A stretch of DNA of 63,959 bases, counting the filler, from Theionarchaea archaeon (GTDB lineage Archaea > Methanobacteriota_B > Thermococci > Methanofastidiosales > SZ-28-30): NCBI GenBank assembly GCA_018992565.1. It is 6 parts of 6 records of this genome, joined end to end, with 100 filler letters (N's around TTAATTAATTAA, not from the genome) between each part and the next. Parts side by side here need not be neighbours in the genome. Positions count along the whole stretch, not along the records: positions 7,285 to 37,040 come from JACVGW010000025.1; 5 more parts are not named here. One strand, given 5' to 3'. The translations under genes were made by a program, and so were the position numbers. Below the pieces are notes generated by a model. It did no database searches, was not told the DNA's origin, and saw only the letters and a list, made by a program, of their open reading frames with translations. Of the stretch, positions 7,185 through 58,716 are shown in pieces (position 1 is the first letter of the stretch; each line of letters opens with the position of its first letter).

Positions 7185-7284
7185 NNNNNNNNNNNNNNNN
7201 NNNNNNNNNNNNNNNNNNNNNNNNNNNNTTAATTAATTAANNNNNNNNNNNNNNNNNNNNNNNNNNNNNNNNNNNNNNNNNNNN
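7185..7284. other. Artificial contig linker (also at 37041-37140, 44284-44383, 51462-51561, 58617-58716)
   Basis: Identical TTAATTAATTAA (stops in all six frames) embedded in N runs. Confidence 0.97.
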
Positions 7285-31059: not shown

Positions 31060-32484
31060 ATGACCGTGGAAGTGACCTCTATCGGCGATCATGTCAGTAT
31101 AGACGATGATGCCACTCATTTATTGTTCAATACAGCTGATTCAGGATTGTATAGAATAGAACTCATTACCAGAAAACTTTTGGTTCTCATACATGACTAT
31201 GGCATAGAAGCTGCTCGGTCACTCATAAAGGAAGACGATATTGAAAACGTGGCGGAAGAGAAACTTTCAGAACTTAAAGAGAACAAGTTCCTGGACCCAC
31301 TTCCAGAATTTGTTCCCCAGGAGACATCTCCCATCATGTTTGCGTCTCTCAACGTGTCTCATGACTGCAACCTCAACTGCCGCTACTGTTATGGAGGGGG
31401 CGGAACCTATGCAGGAGACCCCTGTCACATGAGTACGGACGTGGGAGAACTGGCTGTTGATCGGCTCTTCGAGTGGTGTGATGATAGCGAACTTCTGGGT
31501 ATCAATTTCTTTGGAGGAGAACCCCTCCTGAACGTGAAATTGATACAGCATCTGGTGTCCTATGCAACTGAAAGAGCACATGCTGAAGAGAAAAAAGTGC
31601 GATTCAGCATGACATCCAATGGCACTCTTTTCACTGACGAGATAGTCGCGTTCCTCAAGGAGAGTAATATAGGAGTGCTGGTGAGCATGGATGGGCCAAA
31701 GCACGTCCAGGATGTCAACCGCCCCTTCAGAAATGGTAAGGGGTCATATGATGTCATTGCAGACCGACTTCAATCCCTCCTGGCTGTCAGGCCTCACCTG
31801 ACTGCCCGTGCAACCCTGACCAAAGATTGTATGTCTCTCAGTACGCTGGTTGATGGGCTCAGAGACGTGGGGTTCACCTATGTACATGTAGAGCCTTTGA
31901 CTCCTTATGAGAACTGCCCATTTGCACTTTCTGAGGAGGATTTTGAAACCCTCAAGGATGAATATGATAAGCTCGGGCATATATTCCTGGAAAATATCCT
32001 GAATGGGACCCCCTTTGGATTCTCAAATATTCTGAGGACCCTGAGTGCTATATACACCTCCGGGGTTCGTCACTATCCATGCGGTGCAGGGAAGAACCTC
32101 ATGGCAGTTGATCCCATGGGTGGAATCTATATATGCCACCGGTTTGTGGGAATGGAAGACTTCTCCATGGGTACCCTGAACGATCCCGATTTTTCTATTC
32201 AAAAGAGACTCCTCCAGGCCCATGTAGATGCGCGAGATGAGTGCAGGAACTGCTGGGCCAGGCACTTATGTGCAGGGAGTTGCTGGTACGATAATTATGT
32301 GTACAGTGGTGCTATTGACAGACCACACAGCCCGAGATGCAGTCTTTTCAAGCATATTGCTGCACTTTCCATGGTTATATTTTCAAAATTACATGAAAAA
32401 GATAAGGCATTACTGGATAAGATGTTCCGGAAGCATGAACCGTCATACAGACGTGGTGAATTTCCGGAGGATGAGAGAACGTGA
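31060..32484 (+). CDS. Radical SAM/SPASM peptide maturase (thioether-forming type)
   Basis: CNLNCRYC, FFGGEPLL, SPASM CGAG...YICHRF...CRNCWARHLCAGSC...C; about 90-aa N-terminal extension (possible RRE). Confidence 0.9.
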   Translation: MTVEVTSIGDHVSIDDDATHLLFNTADSGLYRIELITRKLLVLIHDYGIEAARSLIKEDDIENVAEEKLSELKENKFLDPLPEFVPQETSPIMFASLNVSHDCNLNCRYCYGGGGTYAGDPCHMSTDVGELAVDRLFEWCDDSELLGINFFGGEPLLNVKLIQHLVSYATERAHAEEKKVRFSMTSNGTLFTDEIVAFLKESNIGVLVSMDGPKHVQDVNRPFRNGKGSYDVIADRLQSLLAVRPHLTARATLTKDCMSLSTLVDGLRDVGFTYVHVEPLTPYENCPFALSEEDFETLKDEYDKLGHIFLENILNGTPFGFSNILRTLSAIYTSGVRHYPCGAGKNLMAVDPMGGIYICHRFVGMEDFSMGTLNDPDFSIQKRLLQAHVDARDECRNCWARHLCAGSCWYDNYVYSGAIDRPHSPRCSLFKHIAALSMVIFSKLHEKDKALLDKMFRKHEPSYRRGEFPEDERT

Positions 32485-32497
32485 AGGAGGTGATACC

Positions 32498-32635
32498 ACG
32501 ATACGATTAAATGGAACAAGTGAGCCCCAGCCACCCACGTGCCCGGATGACTACATATGTCCATGGGTTGATATCTGCACTATTGACTTCGACCCCTGTG
32601 CATTTATTGACATCTGCGGAATTGACTACCACTAG
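32498..32635 (+). CDS. Cys/Asp-rich RiPP precursor A1: (M)IRLNGTSEPQPPTCPDDYICPWVDICTIDFDPCAFIDICGIDYH
   Basis: AGGAGGTGA RBS 32485-32493 then ACG; 45 codons; five Cys each followed by Asp at +3 or +4. Confidence 0.85.
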   Translation, partial: TIRLNGTSEPQPPTCPDDYICPWVDICTIDFDPCAFIDICGIDYH

Positions 32636-32650
32636 ACTATTTTTTTTCTT
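32636..32650 (+). terminator. Oligo-T terminator-like tract after precursor A1 (similar tract at 33124-33149)
   Basis: ACTATTTTTTTTCTT immediately after stop codon. Confidence 0.4.
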
Positions 32651-32686
32651 GAATAGTACACAAGGTACAGAGAGGGAGGTGATATG

Positions 32687-32803
32687 ATGATACGATTGAA
32701 TGAAGGAGTGGAAGAAGGAGGCATACATATCTGCCTGATAGACTACGTGCACTGCGATAATATTGATATCTGCATAGTCAAAGACTATGCTGCGCTTGGC
32801 TAG
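32687..32803 (+). CDS. Cys/Asp-rich RiPP precursor B: MIRLNEGVEEGGIHICLIDYVHCDNIDICIVKDYAALG
   Basis: GGAGGTGA RBS, ATG, same MIRLN leader, CLID/CDNID/CIVKD motifs. Confidence 0.85.
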   Translation: MIRLNEGVEEGGIHICLIDYVHCDNIDICIVKDYAALG

Positions 32804-32985
32804 GATTGATCCATGATGTGGCGATCCATCCAGTCAGCACGCGAGGCATGGTATGTCTGGCGAATCCCCGGGTGCTCTTGAACAGGGGTACCGGGAATCA
32901 CGGGATCCAGTGAAGGTCACTTTTATTTTCTTGAACATGCGAATCCTACAGAAACCAGGACGAGAAAATTGAAGGAGGTGATATC

Positions 32986-33123
32986 ACGATACGCTTAAAC
33001 GGAACAAGTGAACCCCAGCCACCCACGTGCCCAGATGACTACATATGTCCATGGGTTGATATCTGCACTATTGACTTCGACCCCTGTGCATTTATTGACA
33101 TCTGTGGAATTGACTACCACTAG
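32986..33123 (+). CDS. Cys/Asp-rich RiPP precursor A2 (peptide identical to A1)
   Basis: AGGAGGTGA RBS then ACG; five nucleotide differences from A1, all synonymous. Confidence 0.85.
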   Translation, partial: TIRLNGTSEPQPPTCPDDYICPWVDICTIDFDPCAFIDICGIDYH

Positions 33124-33324
33124 ACAATTTCTTTTCATTTTTATTTTTTNNNNNNNNNNNNNNNNNNNNNNNNNNNNNNNNNNNNNNNNNNNNNNNNNNN
33201 NNNNNNNNNNNNNNNNNNNNNNNNNNNNNNNNNNNNNNNNNNNNNNNNNGATCTTGAGCTACCCAAAAGTATTTAAGTTCTTGTTCACATGGGAGCGTAC
33301 AAACTCCTCAAGGAGGTGAAAGAA

Positions 33325-35978
33325 TTGAAAGGTAGAGAAGTGACAATACTAGCATTGATACTGATGCTTTGTATGAGCATTCCCGCAGCTTTTTCTGAGA
33401 ACGACAATTTCGGTGTAGACTACAAGTTCACACCTGTCCTGACAGGTGGCATGTGTAGCGGATGTGGTACCTACTTGATTGAGGATACCCAGATCTATTC
33501 TGCTCCAGGAGAACCTCTGGTTCCCTACAGAACTGCCTCGATTCTGTTGCCACAGGGTGCAGAGTTGAAAGATGTCAAGGTTAAGCATGGCAAGCCCATT
33601 GTTATGAAGGGCTATGACCTGCCGTGGGGTCAACCCCCCTGCACATTCAGCGATACCCCAGTAACAGTTGGCAGAAATGAAGAGACGTACAATTCCAACA
33701 GTTTGTACCCCCAGACACTCTTTAAGGTGGTTGGTGTTGAATCTTTCAGAGGATACAGCATTCTGAACCTGCTCCTGTTCCCTGTGCAGTACCAGCCAAA
33801 GTCTGGCACGGTCCACTTCTATCAGAAGTTGACTGTTGAGGTCCAGTTTGGCAAGGGTATGAAGAACAAGCTGTACAGAGGATTGGAGGAAGACAAGGCA
33901 GCTGTTGCTGATATTGTAGATAACATTGACACATTGAATACCTATGAGAGTGGACCAACACCTCTGGCAACTGAAGAATACATCATCATCACCAACGACA
34001 CGCTGGAGTCTACATTCCAGAGTCTGGCAACCTGGAAGGCAGGCTTCGTTGACGGAGCTTCAGTGTATACCGTGTCCTGGATCTCATCAAACTACACTGG
34101 TACTGACACCCAGATGAAGATTCGTAACTTCATCATTGACAAGTACACCAACAATGGTACGCTGTATGTCTTACTTGGTGGTGATACTGGCGTTGTCCCC
34201 TACAGAGGATTCTACGTCAGCACAGGTGGATATACTGACAGCGACATGGCAGCAGACATGTATTATGCTCACCTGGATGGCAGTCACAACTCAGATGGTG
34301 ACTCCCGGTATGGTGAGACTAATGATGGTGTCGACTTCTATGCAGAGGTTGCAGTCGGCCGTGCACCTGTGGACAACACAACAGAAGCCCAGTCGTTCGT
34401 CAACAAGGTCATCGCCTATGAGCAGATGGACAAGCCAGAGAGAGTCTGCCTGCATGAGTCTCGCGTGGGCAGTAACAACAGTCCTGATGCCCGATGCCTG
34501 GCATACAACTGTGATAACTACATCCCCACTGGGTATACCATCGACTACCTGTTCGAAGAAGATGGTAATGTCTCAAAGGCTGACTGGAGAGCAGCATGGG
34601 CAGCTGGTCCTATTGCCGTCGTCCACATTGGACACGGGAACACGACTGTCTACTACATCAACTATGAAGTGGGCGGTACTGTGAGCTGGTATACCACAGA
34701 TGTATCCAGTTTGACCAACACGTTCTACCCATGGACAACCAGTGTGGCCTGTATCTGTGGTGAATTTGAGGCTTCTGACTGTCTGTCTGAATACTACGTC
34801 AAGGATGACTGTGGAGCTATTGGTGCCATCTACAACGACAACTACGGCTGGTTCATGACGACTGATGCCTGTGCATTGAGTGGTGAATTCTGTGAGATGG
34901 AAGTCAGAGCATGCTGGAGCGATGGTTACGAGAAGCTGGGTGACATTCTGAACAGGTCACGATACTACATGGCATCCTCAGCTCAGAGTGATACCTACTA
35001 CAGGTGGTGCTTCTATGAGAGAAACCTCATGGGTGATCCAGAAACCCCCTGTCTGACCAAGAGAGGAGAACAGCATACAGTGACCATCACCAACCCAGCC
35101 GATGGATCAACTGTCTCTGGAACTGTCAGCGTTACCACAAGCACCAACTGCGATGAAGTGAAGTTCTACATCGATGGTNNNNNNNNNNNNNNNNNNNNNN
35201 NNNNNNNNNNNNNNNNNNNNNNNNNNNNNNNNNNNNNNNNNNNNNNNNNNNNNNNNNNNNNNNNNNNNNNNNNNNNNNCTGGGACACCACTGGATACTCC
35301 AACGGCAGCCACACCATCATGGTTGAGGGATACGTGTCTGGTACGTTACAGGACACTGACTCTGTTACTGTCACAGTCAACAATGTCAGTTACTATGTGA
35401 CCATCACCAACCCAGCCGATGGATCAACTGTCTCTGGAACTGTCAGCGTTACCACAAGCACCAACTGCGATGAAGTGAAGTTCTACATCGATGGTACGTT
35501 AGTGAAGGATGATACATCATCACCCTTTGACTACACCTGGGACACCACTGGATACTCCAACGGCAGCCACACCATCATGGTTGAGGGATACGTGTCTGGT
35601 ACGTTACAGGACACTGACTCTGTTACTGTCACAGTGCAGAACCTCGCGTACTACCTTACCATCACCAACCCCTCAGAGGGTGAAGTTGTATCCGGTACTG
35701 TTACAGTAACGACGGATACCAACTGCAGTGAGGTACGGTTCTACATTGATGGTTCGCTTGTAGGAACTGACACTACAGCACCCTTCCAGTACAGCTGGAA
35801 CACCGAGAACTATTCTGACGGTAACCACACTGTAAGGGCTGATGGATACGTGTCAGGTACAATGGAAGCCCAGGACACAGTCACCTGTGAAGTTGACAAT
35901 GGTGGAGAGTGTCTCGGAACTACGCTCGTTTCCTTGCTGGTATTGTTTGGATCTGCAGCATTGTATAGAAGACGCTAA
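33325..35978 (+). CDS. Secreted C25 (gingipain-like) cysteine peptidase with propeptide, Ig-like repeats and C-terminal anchor (spans a gap)
   Basis: TTG start after AGGAGGTGA; signal peptide; YVLLGGD, DMYYA, VAVGRAPV, GHG and SVAC catalytic motifs, NLMGDP; TM+RRR tail. Confidence 0.88.
35080..35636 (+). repeat. Tandem 258-nt (86-aa) Ig-like domain repeat
   Basis: 35080-35178 matches 35397-35495 and 35279-35377 matches 35537-35635; a third diverged unit follows. Confidence 0.85.
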
Positions 35979-37040: not shown

Positions 37041-37140
37041 NNNNNNNNNNNNNNNNNNNNNNNNNNNNNNNNNNNNNNNNNNNNTTAATTAATTAANNNN
37101 NNNNNNNNNNNNNNNNNNNNNNNNNNNNNNNNNNNNNNNN

Positions 37141-44201: not shown

Positions 44202-44408
44202 TCAGATGTTTGGAGTGGAACAGGATTTCAGAGGGAAGGGAAAACTCACAGGGTTAACGCCAGAATCCATGGATAATATCTACNNNNNNNNNNNNNNNNN
44301 NNNNNNNNNNNNNNNNNNNNNNNNNNNTTAATTAATTAANNNNNNNNNNNNNNNNNNNNNNNNNNNNNNNNNNNNNNNNNNNNTAAAACGCTGCACCAAC
44401 CTCATACC

Positions 44409-49508: not shown

Positions 49509-50295
49509 TAGCTTCGCTTACAATCGAATGATTAAAAAGGTTTCGTATTAGATGAGCCCACATTTCAGTTTTCTGAGATTCCATGAACATTTTGGGTCCC
49601 ACCTGCAAGCGAGAGTGACAGCGATGGCTAGACACACCTCCAAGAAAGCATAGATCAATCTGAGGAACCTCTTCCTGAAGCTCAGCGTATTAAAGGAGAA
49701 AAAGACATCATTCGTTGTTAAAGGGGGAAACCCCATCATTCATTACATCTAATCTGTCATCAGTAGACCTCTCAGCAAAAAATCTGGCGAGAGTACATTA
49801 ATTTTGTCATAATAAACATAAAGAGAATTATTCTGATTATAATAAGCTATGGTTTAACTACAGAAAGAAAAAAAGTACAAAGACTTCTTTATCTACTTTT
49901 AAGCCCATCAATGTGAATTTAAACAAGAATAAAATATCAATTATATTTTTCACAATCTCCCAAATTTAATTCTTGCAGGAATTTTGGTCAAAAGGAGAAA
50001 TCACGCTGTTCAGCAGAAATCAAGAACGTGTGCAACTGAAAAATCCACTAATCCGTATTCTGAGAAATAGGAAAAATCATAAAGAATTCTTCTGTTAAAG
50101 AGTTGGAGTCTTCTTTTTTCCAGAAATTCAGTCATCTTTAATATCATAATATAAATCTGGAAATTATAAAAGGACAGTACAACTACCGATAATGTAGATA
50201 AAAGGTTAATAATAGATCATTGGTAATCAATACCCAAAAGTTTATATACCCAAATGAGAAAGAGAAGTAAATCACTATAAAGGAGGTGACAAGAT

Positions 50296-51461
50296 ACGAA
50301 AGGTAGAATAGGGATAACACTTGTTCTCACGATACTACTGAGTTTGAGTATGTCTACAGTTTACTCCGAAAATGATTCCTTCAGCGTGGAGTATCACTTC
50401 ACTGCCACTACTGCCACAGATGCCTGCGGTTCCTGGATGATTGATGGTACTATTACACAGGAAATTGCAGGAGAGCCCATGGTTCCTTACTACCCTGCAA
50501 GCATCCTTTTGCCGCAGGATTCAGAGATAAAAGACGTCAAGGTGAAGACCAGTAATCCAGTGATCCAAACAGGAGTGGAACTGCCATGGGGCCAGCCGCC
50601 CTGCACATACAGTGATGAACCAGTGAAAGTCGGCAGAAATGAAGAGGTCTATGGCTCTGATAACCTGTACCCTACAACAGAGTTCGAGGTTGTGAGTATA
50701 GAGTCTTTCAGAGGATTCCAGATACTCCTGGTTAACCTGTACCCTATCCAGTATCAGCCAAAGTCAGGAGCCATAAAATTCTATGAGACCATGACAGTGG
50801 ATGTGAAATTCGGAAAGGGTATGAAGAACAAGCTGTATAGAGGGCTTGGTGAAGACAAAGCTGAGATCTCTGGCATGGTGGACAACCCTGAAATGGTCGC
50901 CACGTACGAGGATGGAGCAGTGCCGTTATCGACCTACCAGTACATCATCATCACCAATGACACTATGAAGTCAACCTTCCAGACACTTGCCAATCACAAA
51001 GCCCACTATGTAACAGGAGCAGCTGTCTATACTGTATCATGGATTTCATCCAATTACACAGGAAGGGATACCCAGGAGAAAATCAGGAACTTCATCAAAG
51101 ACTACTACACCAATTGTGGTACGCGGTATGTGTTACTGGGTGGCGATATCAGTGCAGTCCCCTACAGAGGCTTTTATGTGAGTACAGGCGGATATACTGA
51201 TTCTGATATGCTGGCCGACATGTACTATGGTCACCTGGATGGCACGTGGAACACTGACAATGACAGCCGCTGGGGCGAATCAGGAGAAGAAGACTGGTAT
51301 GCTGAAGTGGCTGTTGGAAGAGCACCAGTGGAAAGCACTACAGAAGCATCAAACTTTGTGAACAAAGTCATCAACTACGAGCTCGCCGCGAAACCCAAGA
51401 AAGTCCTCCTGCACCAATCCCGAATCGCATCCGGAAACTCCCCCGATTCACGGTGCCTGGC
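50296..51461 (+). CDS. Second C25 family peptidase paralog (3' end cut), probable ACG start
   Basis: Strong similarity to 33325 gene (LPWGQPPCT, GKGMKNKLYRG, YRGFYVSTGGYTDSDM); RBS 50281-50289 then ACG-KGR and signal peptide. Confidence 0.85.
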
Positions 51462-51564
51462 NNNNNNNNNNNNNNNNNNNNNNNNNNNNNNNNNNNNNNN
51501 NNNNNTTAATTAATTAANNNNNNNNNNNNNNNNNNNNNNNNNNNNNNNNNNNNNNNNNNNNGGG

Positions 51565-58616: not shown

Positions 58617-58716
58617 NNNNNNNNNNNNNNNNNNNNNNNNNNNNNNNNNNNNNNNNNNNNTTAATTAATTAANNNNNNNNNNNNNNNNNNNNNNNNNNNN
58701 NNNNNNNNNNNNNNNN

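Follow-up and report, generated by a model that had tools for sequence, protein, structure and literature searches.

Two of the three small precursor genes in a peptide-modification cluster of this uncultured Theionarchaea archaeon from sediment carry ACG at the position where their paralogue has ATG. We put at roughly 70% the probability that these two copies, copies 1 and 3, are functional, encoding a Cys/Asp-rich precursor of a predicted thioether-type radical SAM/SPASM maturase, and that they use a non-canonical start. In this lineage of archaea, some proteins probably begin at ACG, and their genes would escape gene finders. Positions refer to the window, the whole 63,959-nt stretch of DNA that was analyzed, and all features given below lie on its plus strand.

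The precursor genes and their start contexts

The maturase (31060..32484; 474 aa; Pfam Radical_SAM, 1.2e-15, and Fer4_12) stops at TGA 32482-32484, 13 nt upstream of the copy 1 ACG. Its best NCBIfam matches are rSAM_nif11 (309.2 bits; cut-off, 518.7), QhpD (297; 453), the PapB-type ranthipeptide equivalog NF047865 (296.4; 340), and the SCIFF maturase (294.6; 425), all under the curated cut-offs. Directly downstream, the type A precursor carries the motifs CPDD, CPWVD, CTID, CAFID, and CGID and the type B precursor carries CLID, CDNID, and CIVKD; a repeated Cys-Xn-Asp substrate is thus encoded beside the enzyme, as is required of a PapB-type system.

Copy 1 (type A; 32498..32635) is preceded by a Shine-Dalgarno (SD) site at 32484..32494 that reads AAGGAGGTGAT and holds a 10-nt run matching AGGAGGTGATC, with the end of GGAGG 7 nt 5' of the ACG. 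Its start context is AAGGAGGTGATACC ACG ATA CGA TTA AAT, with ACG at 32498-32500 and ATA at 32501 as candidate starts, and its 45 codons, which end at TAG 32633-32635, encode (M/T)IRLNGTSEPQPPTCPDDYICPWVDICTIDFDPCAFIDICGIDYH. The T8 tract that follows at 32640..32647, read from the sequence, is possibly an archaeal oligo-T terminator. In copy 2 (type B; 32684..32803), the SD site at 32674..32683, GGGAGGTGAT, is followed by ATG ATG ATA CGA TTG AAT, with the two ATGs, at 32684 and 32687, 4 and 7 nt past GGAGG; the product is MMIRLNEGVEEGGIHICLIDYVHCDNIDICIVKDYAALG and the stop is TAG 32801-32803. Copy 3 (32986..33123) duplicates type A, and its 45-aa peptide is identical to that of copy 1. The letters of its SD site (32972..32982) are those of copy 1, and its context reads AAGGAGGTGATATC ACG ATA CGC TTA AAC, with candidate starts at ACG 32986-32988 and ATA 32989.

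Counted from GGAGG, the ACG of copies 1 and 3 sits at 7 nt, the position of an ATG in copy 2. The original prediction had aligned the three starts in just this way, and our base-by-base reading agrees. A codon listing likewise bears out what it had said of copy 3: the frame is closed upstream by an in-frame TGA (32932..32934), and neither the 17 upstream nor the 45 coding codons include ATG, GTG, or TTG. Near its start, the near-cognate codons in frame are ATT 32968, ATC 32983, ACG 32986, and ATA 32989. We rejected a start farther upstream with readthrough of TGA 32932, as the ORF at 32806-32913 is closed by a second in-frame stop. The frame of copy 1, taken by itself, does have canonical codons upstream, the nearest being ATG 32471, whereas that of copy 3 has none. 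We did not keep ATG 32471 as a start of copy 1: it lies 5' of the SD site and within the 3' end of the maturase gene, and copy 3 reads ACG there, followed by a 1-nt gap.

The bases themselves are secure. Half or more of the words sampled from 32300-33149 are present in 20 of 22 listed public runs, from seven studies; the listing included no RNA run. Contigs were obtained from four runs, one of which may be the source of the window, and those from three studies give the ACG bases of copies 1 and 3 on which the original prediction depended. The X4 and X5 contigs span 32300-32575, including the copy 1 ACG, with no other letters, and contigs of X1, X4, and X5 span 32608 (X5, 32587) to 33063, including the copy 2 ATG and the copy 3 ACG, with 0 or 1 other letter; the contig of a further run, X8, covers 33075-33149 only, away from the ACG sites. 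Sixteen N runs break up the window, a gapped scaffold, and one of them, at 33150, adjoins copy 3; this is what could speak for a sequencing or assembly error or for a strain variant mis-scaffolded as copy 3. We regard the chance of either as negligible: both ACG sites recur in contigs from three studies, copy 2 is joined to copy 3 on a single contig in each of X1, X4, and X5, and copy 3 has diverged flanks of its own. Moreover, depth over the stretch common to copies 1 and 3 is about twice that of the unique parts, which fits a true two-copy repeat.

Copies 1 and 3 differ at 5 of 135 coding bases, all in third positions and all synonymous (pS, 0.18; pN, 0). The probability that five of five random changes would be synonymous is about 0.0003 to 0.003, for a test that rests on five substitutions only. 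The flanks are roughly as diverged as the synonymous sites, with four differences in the 11 columns 5' of TGAAGGAGG and nothing alignable farther upstream; the 14 nt TGAAGGAGGTGATA plus ACGATACG are unchanged. These patterns indicate that the ACG-bearing copies are under purifying selection, and both copies look translated. As duplicates that go back to a single ancestral ATG-to-ACG event, they count as one case rather than two.

Outside the window, the peptide family was found on one metagenome contig, L024, and nowhere else. The L024 maturase is 72% identical to that of the window, both of its precursors read GGAGGTGATAAG ATG ATG, with ATG at the position of the window's ACG, and all Cys and Asp core positions of type A are kept. 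L024, the only ATG-bearing relative, has a maturase gene with an internal deletion and a frameshift. No Pfam or NCBIfam model matches the peptide family. Among 5.8 billion called proteins, the window's own included, none of 24 to 79 aa resembles the peptide, which fits the original expectation that gene callers overlook such genes. A peptide profile run over 132 genomes of the class gave nothing convincing (best E, 0.006), and a single peptide searched against one of the genomes, G001, reached an E of 0.18. The maturase had matches at an E of 1e-40 or better in 17 of these 132 genomes, with identities of at most 37% when G001 is set aside. A contig search with the maturase yielded one locus, L001, at 55% identity; it has no precursor, and its frame runs from rSAM into an ABC ATPase, so it is uninformative.

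Candidate ACG starts in other genes of the lineage

Two C25-family peptidase genes lie in the same window. Paralogue 1 (33325..35165; Pfam Peptidase_C25, 5.2e-45), interrupted by an N run at 35179, probably starts at TTG 33325, 8 nt past GGAGG; the ORF listing places its start at ATG 33289, 5' of the SD. Paralogue 2 (50296..51461), which ends at the N run at 51462, has ACG 50296 as its candidate start, 9 nt past the GGAGG of an SD site at 50280..50289 (AAGGAGGTGA). The TGA within that site, at 50287, is an in-frame stop two codons before the ACG, and between it and the conserved KGR there are just CAA, GAT, and ACG. The signal-like N-terminus of paralogue 2 aligns with that of paralogue 1 from residue 2, and starting at the first canonical in-frame codon, TTG 50344, would cost the KGR and this hydrophobic segment. 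Among 13 C25-family genes examined, starts are TTG in five, ATG in five, and ACG in two, and one gene is fused and has no N-terminal start; where paralogue 2 has ACG, 10 paralogues thus carry ATG or TTG. The two ACG genes are paralogue 2 and its orthologue in G032, another species, 87% identical; the ACG start is therefore conserved across species.

A further case is a PrpD-like gene of 464 codons in G032, with ACG 7 nt past GGAGG. Seven homologous loci were found, and in all five with an N-terminal alignment the ACG position holds ATG. In the precursors, C25 paralogue 2, and the PrpD-like gene alike, a codon one base from AUG occupies the spacing of real starts, and for each of the three the ACG aligns with the canonical start of homologues.

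We scanned the window for codons 7 to 9 nt behind an SD run of 9 to 10 nt that open an ORF of at least 35 codons. ATG was found in this setting at 14 of 2,484 occurrences, GTG at 3 of 1,985, TTG at 2 of 1,987, and ACG at 3 of 969, a count that includes the duplicate copies 1 and 3 and so a single evolutionary event twice; ACG is the rarest non-stop codon with any match, and its placement exceeds what chance would give. We also collected orphan strong-SD slots, defined by SD runs of 7 or more, from the window, G032, and a further relative, G033 (n = 70). ACG fills five of them (0.58 expected; P, 0.0003), an enrichment that is soft in that two of the five slots are orthologues of each other and two, in a G032 MatE gene and a G033 thiolase-like gene, are unvalidated. 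ATA also fills five (1.14 expected; P, 0.006), whereas a control genome from the same class gave 0 of 41 over 400 kb. Three candidates were discarded: the G032 MatE gene (ACG at C7:120478) has a plausible ATG 19 codons farther on, still ahead of the MatE domain; the G033 thiolase-like gene, whose ACG is spaced at 10 nt, has a canonical start 9 codons into the frame; and ATA 57118 of the window overlaps a longer opposite-strand ORF. ATA-start candidates at 7-nt spacing comprise two genes of G032, for a glycyl-radical-activase-like rSAM and a Yip1 protein, and two of G033, for an ABC ATPase and ribosomal protein L18e. Behind SD runs of at least 7, G032 has 58 canonical starts, 37 of them at a spacing of 7 nt, 8 at 9 nt, and 5 at 10 nt; in the window, 4 of 7 are spaced at 7 nt.

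The anti-SD sequence of the lineage is our assumption, taken from general knowledge together with the SD-motif enrichment seen here; an SSU search gave no match in G032 and a match covering positions 4-825 only in G033. Neither tRNA genes nor Rfam matches turned up anywhere in the window. In the relatives G032 and G033, a search with one pattern, GGGCTNNTAACCC, found no initiator-like tRNA (three G:C pairs in the anticodon stem) with anticodon CGT; it returned CAT-anticodon tRNAs nearly identical to that of control genome G107. The use of ACG seems to belong to how this lineage translates its genes, not to the peptide cluster. The original prediction had added that near-cognate starts might tune precursor dosage, and as a special explanation this is weakened because ACG also sits at the start of C25 paralogue 2 and of the PrpD-like gene.

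Proposed initiation at ACG and its alternatives

Of the original prediction, near-cognate initiation itself stands as the best-supported reading of the comparative evidence, namely, the purifying selection, the conserved SD, the alignment of ACG with ATG or TTG, and the independent ACG-start genes of the lineage. From these we infer that ribosomes start at ACG and insert Met, at low efficiency. The mechanism that we favor, as likely to be right, is weak Met-tRNAi initiation at ACG (or at the adjacent ATA) enabled by a very strong SD. The SD, with 10 to 11 nt complementary to the 3' end of 16S rRNA, would park the archaeal 30S initiation complex such that ACG, at the modal spacing of 7 nt, comes to lie in the P site. 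Met-tRNAi would then pair with ACG despite the middle-base mismatch, giving M-I-R-L-N-G, or might slip by one codon to ATA, giving M-R-L-N-G. Per mRNA, the ACG copies would yield much less than copy 2 with its ATG, and the lineage would carry ACG, and probably ATA too, at the start of a small share of its SD-led genes. A model published for Pyrococcus abyssi has the initiator tRNA scan P-site triplets locally on SD-led mRNAs (PMC6237735). Counting against an ACG start, the same paper reports that aIF1 destabilises complexes on non-AUG mRNA, and in E. coli ACG initiates at about 0.1 to 1% of AUG (bioRxiv 10.1101/063800). Termination-reinitiation was considered as well, since the TGA 13 nt 5' of the ACG ends the maturase gene in copy 1 and a 39-codon ORF (32853-32972) in copy 3. 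C25 paralogue 2 lies behind a promoter-like AAAAGTTTATATA without such an upstream gene, and coupling therefore cannot be the general cause.

The true precursor start could instead be ATA (32501 and 32989), with ACG as the last spacer codon. All three copies retain ATA, and the codon aligned with it in L024 is the second ATG, from which the same product, MRLNG, would be made; the lineage has the ATA candidates at 7-nt spacing in G032 and G033 described above; and AUA, at 1 to 2% of AUG, outdoes ACG in E. coli (bioRxiv 10.1101/063800). Nevertheless, we think this unlikely. The precursor ATA lies 10 nt past GGAGG, a spacing used by 5 of the 58 canonical G032 starts versus 37 at 7 nt, and it is ACG that lines up with the 7-nt ATG of copy 2. 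In the C25 and PrpD-like genes, moreover, ACG is followed by AAA or AAC rather than ATA, so that ACG can stand alone.

Copies 1 and 3 might also be start-loss alleles, untranslated and silent or decaying, with copy 2 alone feeding the maturase. That ACG is derived, because the relative L024 has ATG, would agree with such a loss, as would the poor performance of ACG as a start in E. coli (bioRxiv 10.1101/063800) and the absence from the protein collection of any called protein resembling the peptide. Decay is nonetheless hard to reconcile with five of five differences being synonymous while the flanks diverged similarly to synonymous sites, with Cys/Asp core positions all kept relative to L024, with an intact SD in both ACG copies, and with a sequence that is stable in assemblies of several studies. 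Furthermore, ACG opens a two-species peptidase gene of at least 388 codons and the 464-codon PrpD-like gene, which cannot be dead, and we consider silent copies distinctly improbable. The recurrence of ACG at the starts of unrelated genes is the pattern expected if mRNA C-to-U editing turned ACG into AUG before translation, and this would mark an undiscovered archaeal editing system. Editing would leave the ATA-start candidates of the lineage unexplained, no mRNA C-to-U editing is known in archaea and none emerged from literature searches directed at start codons rather than at editing, and we hold it to be highly improbable.

If archaeal ribosomes naturally use ACG, and AUA, with a strong SD, then the prokaryotic start set of NCBI table 11 is incomplete and gene callers truncate or miss genes: here, RiPP precursors would be missed outright, and the signal peptide would be cut from a secreted protease. 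Genome mining for modified peptides hinges on tiny precursor genes, and this cluster has three precursors, of which one is apparent. Within one operon-like cluster, a paralogue with ATG stands beside two with ACG, all behind identical ribosome-binding sites, which would constitute a natural experiment on how start-codon strength sets the ratio at which two peptides are made. Archaea initiate translation with a simpler relative of the eukaryotic machinery, and conserved natural ACG starts would offer a probe of how aIF1 and aIF2 police the codon-anticodon match.

Comparison with known systems

The maturase resembles PapB, SCIFF, and QhpD enzymes (NF047865, TIGR03974, and TIGR03906) in matching these models over nearly their full length (E, 1e-87 to 1e-92); it differs in scoring below all the curated cut-offs. 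Ranthipeptide substrates follow a Cys-X3-Asp motif rule, and the precursors described here, with repeated Cys-X2-4-Asp, resemble them, although they are archaeal and have a very short N-terminal leader, (M)(I)RLN.

Our literature search found no report of an ACG start in archaea. In plant organelles, the only setting from which such editing of mRNA start codons is known so far, C-to-U editing turns ACG into AUG at some start codons, and the genomic ACG at the start position of several genes is a likeness; unlike the situation described here, that system needs organelle editing factors, and editing does not account for the ATA candidates. Near-cognate initiation at ACG occurs in eukaryotes and their viruses, e.g., for AAV VP2 and Sendai virus C', where the codon is likewise one base from AUG and the initiator Met-tRNA decodes it at a reduced yield. 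Near-cognate data for yeast CYC7 are cited in PMC4705826, and aIF1, aIF1A, and aIF2 are homologues of eukaryotic initiation factors (PMC6237735). The eukaryotic cases depend on scanning and a Kozak context and serve as alternative isoform starts, whereas in the genes described here an SD duplex lies at a fixed spacing of 7 to 9 nt and ACG is the sole start.

The rare bacterial starts AUU, AUC, AUA, and CUG of NCBI table 11 are also SD-led weak codons that yield an N-terminal Met; ACG is, to our knowledge, not among the start codons of that table. When all 64 codons were measured in E. coli, ACG gave full-length GFP with an N-terminal Met, as an engineered 0.1 to 1% event rather than a conserved natural start (bioRxiv 10.1101/063800). 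Ribosome profiling of Haloferax volcanii placed about 30% of putative alternative initiation sites at near-cognate codons, which the authors set aside to limit false positives; these sites hint that archaeal ribosomes can start there (PMC7261190). The mRNAs of Haloferax are mostly leaderless, whereas the case made here is one of evolutionary conservation in SD-led genes.

Precursor starts in the maturase cluster

A radical SAM/SPASM peptide maturase (31060-32484; Pfam Radical_SAM, 1.2e-15) is followed directly by three small genes encoding Cys/Asp-rich peptides and then by a C25-family peptidase gene. The top NCBIfam matches of the maturase are the nif11-peptide, QhpD, PapB (ranthipeptide), and SCIFF maturases, at ∼295 to 309 bits each, and its scores fall under the curated cutoffs of every one of these models. 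Copies 1 (32498..32635) and 3 (32986..33123) encode one identical 45-residue peptide, (M/T)IRLNGTSEPQPPTCPDDYICPWVDICTIDFDPCAFIDICGIDYH (type A), and copy 2 (32684..32803) encodes a shorter relative, MMIRLNEGVEEGGIHICLIDYVHCDNIDICIVKDYAALG (type B); all are on the plus strand. An N-terminal (I)RLN motif is common to the three peptides, as are repeated Cys-X2-4-Asp units. Thioether-forming SPASM enzymes use units of this type as cross-linking substrates, and those of the precursors are candidates for this kind of modification by the maturase.

The original prediction placed ACG exactly where the paralogue has ATG, and this holds: GGAGGTGAT precedes the start position in all three copies, and the ACG codons at 32498 (copy 1) and 32986 (copy 3) stand opposite the second ATG of copy 2 (32687). 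We likewise confirmed that copy 3 has an in-frame TGA upstream (32932) and a frame without any ATG, GTG, or TTG; an in-frame ATG of copy 1 (32471) lies upstream of its Shine-Dalgarno (SD) site and is absent from copy 3. The prediction proposed checking the bases against sequencing data, and contigs from public runs reproduce both ACG sites. The stretch is present in 20 of 22 listed runs from seven studies; contigs cover copy 1 in two of the four runs examined (no differing letters) and copy 2 through copy 3 in three of the four (zero or one differing letter), with the caveat that the window sequence may itself derive from one of these runs. Read depth is ∼2× over the part common to copies 1 and 3, indicating that copy 3 is a genuine second copy rather than a strain variant.

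The precursor family had no match among called proteins of 24 to 79 amino acids and, across the 132 class genomes searched, nothing convincing (best E value, 0.006); within those searches, it was seen solely in the window cluster and on metagenome contig L024. A 55%-identical maturase from an uncultured Thermococci archaeon (L001:4001-5851) has no precursor gene nearby; its single open frame runs from the radical SAM domain into an ABC-transporter ATPase and may be a product of chimeric assembly or of a deletion. About 45 to 60 nt upstream of copies 2 and 3 and of the second L024 precursor, a T-rich tract leads into TTGAA (window 32640-32660, TTTTTTTTCTTGAATAG; 32920-32940, TTTTATTTTCTTGAACATG; L024 4180-4200, TTTTTTCTTTTTGAAGG) and may combine a terminator with a promoter. 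The window sequence is a scaffold broken by 16 runs of N; besides five interrupted blocks of 44 N, 12 bases, and 44 N (7185-7284, 37041-37140, 44284-44383, 51462-51561, and 58617-58716), there are six plain 100-N scaffold gaps.

Ancestral state and selection on the ACG copies

L024 carries the same cluster, and its maturase matches that of the window at 72% identity across 348 residues. The two precursors there share the sequence GGAGGTGATAAG ATG ATG AGG TTG AA, the first ATG at the position of the window ACG and the second at that of the window ATA; ACG is the derived state. The L024 maturase (2800-2960) lacks residues 42 to 100 of the window enzyme and changes frame there, and the cluster may be damaged or misassembled; both precursors keep ATG ATG.

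Over 135 coding bases, copies 1 and 3 show five differences, each a third-position synonymous change (pS, 0.18; pN, 0), an outcome that for five randomly placed changes has a P value of 0.0003 to 0.003, depending on the assumed transition bias. About 25 nt of the maturase 3′ end were duplicated with the gene and, being non-coding there, have accumulated three mismatches and a 1-nt gap across 11 aligned columns, and divergence is seen in the 3′ flank as well. The 14 nt TGAAGGAGGTGATA followed by ACGATACG are unchanged. Drift is thus comparable at synonymous sites and in the flanks, with the peptide and its ribosome-binding site kept, and we infer that this pattern is the product of selection on a translated gene. 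Under gene conversion, those synonymous differences would have vanished too.

ACG and ATA start candidates elsewhere

We scanned for SD runs of at least 7 nt without a canonical start 4 to 12 nt downstream in any frame; each such orphan slot had to open an ORF of at least 100 codons with no canonical codon upstream in frame, a length below which the precursor genes fall, so that they are uncounted. Canonical-explained SD sites, orphan slots, ACG slots, and ATA slots numbered 150, 42, 3, and 2 in the related genome G032 (727 kb), 65, 20, 1, and 2 in the related genome G033 (382 kb), 21, 8, 1, and 1 in the window (64 kb), and 99, 41, 0, and 0 in G107, a control genome of the same class (400 kb). 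ACG occupies 5 of 70 orphan slots versus 0.58 expected from trinucleotide frequencies (P = 0.0003), and ATA occupies 5 of 70 versus 1.14 (P = 0.006), but the count is soft: one pair of the ACG slots belongs to orthologous genes, and for two others a later start is available, at a plausible ATG 19 codons further on in a MatE gene and 9 codons further on in a thiolase-like gene, which makes them doubtful. Three independent ACG events are solid: the precursor pair, a C25 peptidase, and a PrpD-like gene. ACG is not limited to precursors, which changes its interpretation.

The peptidase is the second C25-family gene of the window (50280-51461), with an ACG start candidate at 50296 in the context AAGGAGGTGA CAA GAT ACG AAA GGT AGA. 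A TGA within the SD site is in frame, leaving just three codons before the conserved Lys-Gly-Arg and hydrophobic N terminus, and ACG is the sole near-cognate among them. A start at the first canonical codon, TTG 50344, where the automatic ORF listing begins the gene, would remove the signal-like segment. The G032 orthologue (87% identical) keeps CAA GAT ACG, and the two window paralogues (61% identity) align from residue 2. Among 13 family genes from the window, G032, and G033, the start position holds TTG in five, ATG in five, and ACG in two; the thirteenth is part of a longer fused frame and has no N-terminal start. At codon 14 (50335), the window gene has ACG and the orthologue (L045) has ATG, so the same T/C difference is also seen at an internal Thr/Met position. 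For the first paralogue (33325..35165), the ORF listing gives a start at ATG 33289, whereas TTG 33325 is favored by both an SD site at 33312 and the family alignment (window 33289-33327). This lineage has an expanded C25 family, with eight matches in G032 and three in G033 (L045-L055); in the remaining 130 class genomes, there is no match at an E value of 1e-20 or better.

The PrpD-family gene of G032 (L077:319-1710, plus strand; G032:C5:19618) has Pfam domains from residue 8 and reads GGAGGTGAGTTA ACG AAC ACG ATA TCG, behind 48 open codons without a canonical start. Seven homologous loci were compared; five gave an N-terminal alignment and two gave none at the thresholds used, and all five have ATG GAA TCN opposite ACG AAC ACG. 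In GTTAACG, ACG shares its A with a TAA in another frame, an arrangement resembling the TAATG overlap of stop and start codons, and the gene may be translationally coupled to its upstream neighbor.

Four ATA candidates all lie in the register 7 nt past GGAGG: a glycyl-radical-activase-like radical SAM enzyme (L059:17551-18432, minus strand) and a Yip1 protein (L069:7898-8563, minus strand) in G032, both in the identical context AGGAGGTGGTACC ATA, and ribosomal protein L18e (L147:470-826, plus strand) and an ABC ATPase (L147:11992-12708, minus strand) in G033. By domain logic these starts look real: the CxxxCxxC motif of the activase-like enzyme lies upstream of its first canonical codon, and starting L18e or the ATPase at a canonical codon would yield a truncated protein.

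Initiation, alternatives, and known archaeal starts

Of 58 canonical G032 starts, 37 have a distance of 7 nt from GGAGG and 8 a distance of 9 nt; the ACG spacing is 7 nt in the precursors and the PrpD-like gene and 9 nt in the peptidase. At ACG starts, the SD run measures 10 nt (precursors), 9 nt (peptidase), or 8 nt (PrpD), and it measures 8 nt at both G032 ATA genes and both G033 ATA candidates; runs of at least 8 nt precede just 22 of 58 canonical G032 starts, near-cognate and canonical sets both being ascertained at runs of at least 7 nt. The ribosome-binding sites of near-cognate starts are strong. In the model for SD-led archaeal mRNAs as outlined in PMC6237735, the SD duplex prepositions the complex and the initiator tRNA samples P-site triplets. 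A long duplex could hold the complex in place long enough for Met-tRNAi, which might then accept ACG or AUA in spite of the single mismatch. The original prediction also pointed to the initiator tRNA: the G032 and G033 genes hardly differ from their control-genome counterpart, and one search pattern turned up no CGT anticodon on an initiator-like stem in these relatives, so that a dedicated initiator tRNA for ACG is not supported there. Output from ACG starts should be low; in Escherichia coli, ACG yields 0.1 to 1% of AUG output, with N-terminal Met (bioRxiv 10.1101/063800). That two ACG copies of peptide A and one ATG copy of peptide B fit a set A/B ratio is speculation.

Among the alternatives to an ACG start, initiation of the precursors at the adjacent ATA is the least improbable, though we regard it as unlikely; that codon would lie 10 nt from GGAGG, a spacing used by 5 of 58 canonical G032 starts. 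Silencing of the ACG copies through start loss is less probable still, being contradicted both by the selection signature and by long, conserved genes with an ACG start. C-to-U editing of the mRNA start would restore AUG but leaves the ATA candidates unexplained, and we give it little credence. An assembly error is refuted by the run contigs matching both ACG sites, and its probability is negligible.

Full-text literature searches returned no report of a natural archaeal ACG start. Ribosome profiling of Haloferax volcanii placed ∼30% of putative alternative initiation sites at near-cognate codons, which its authors set aside (PMC7261190), and a Methanosarcina mazei study, in its account of start codons, gives only ATG, GTG, and TTG plus 5% CTG (PMC11456600). 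A practical consequence of near-cognate starts is that gene callers can miss RiPP precursors. The present case adds the contrast of ATG and ACG paralogues inside one cluster and the ATA start candidates.
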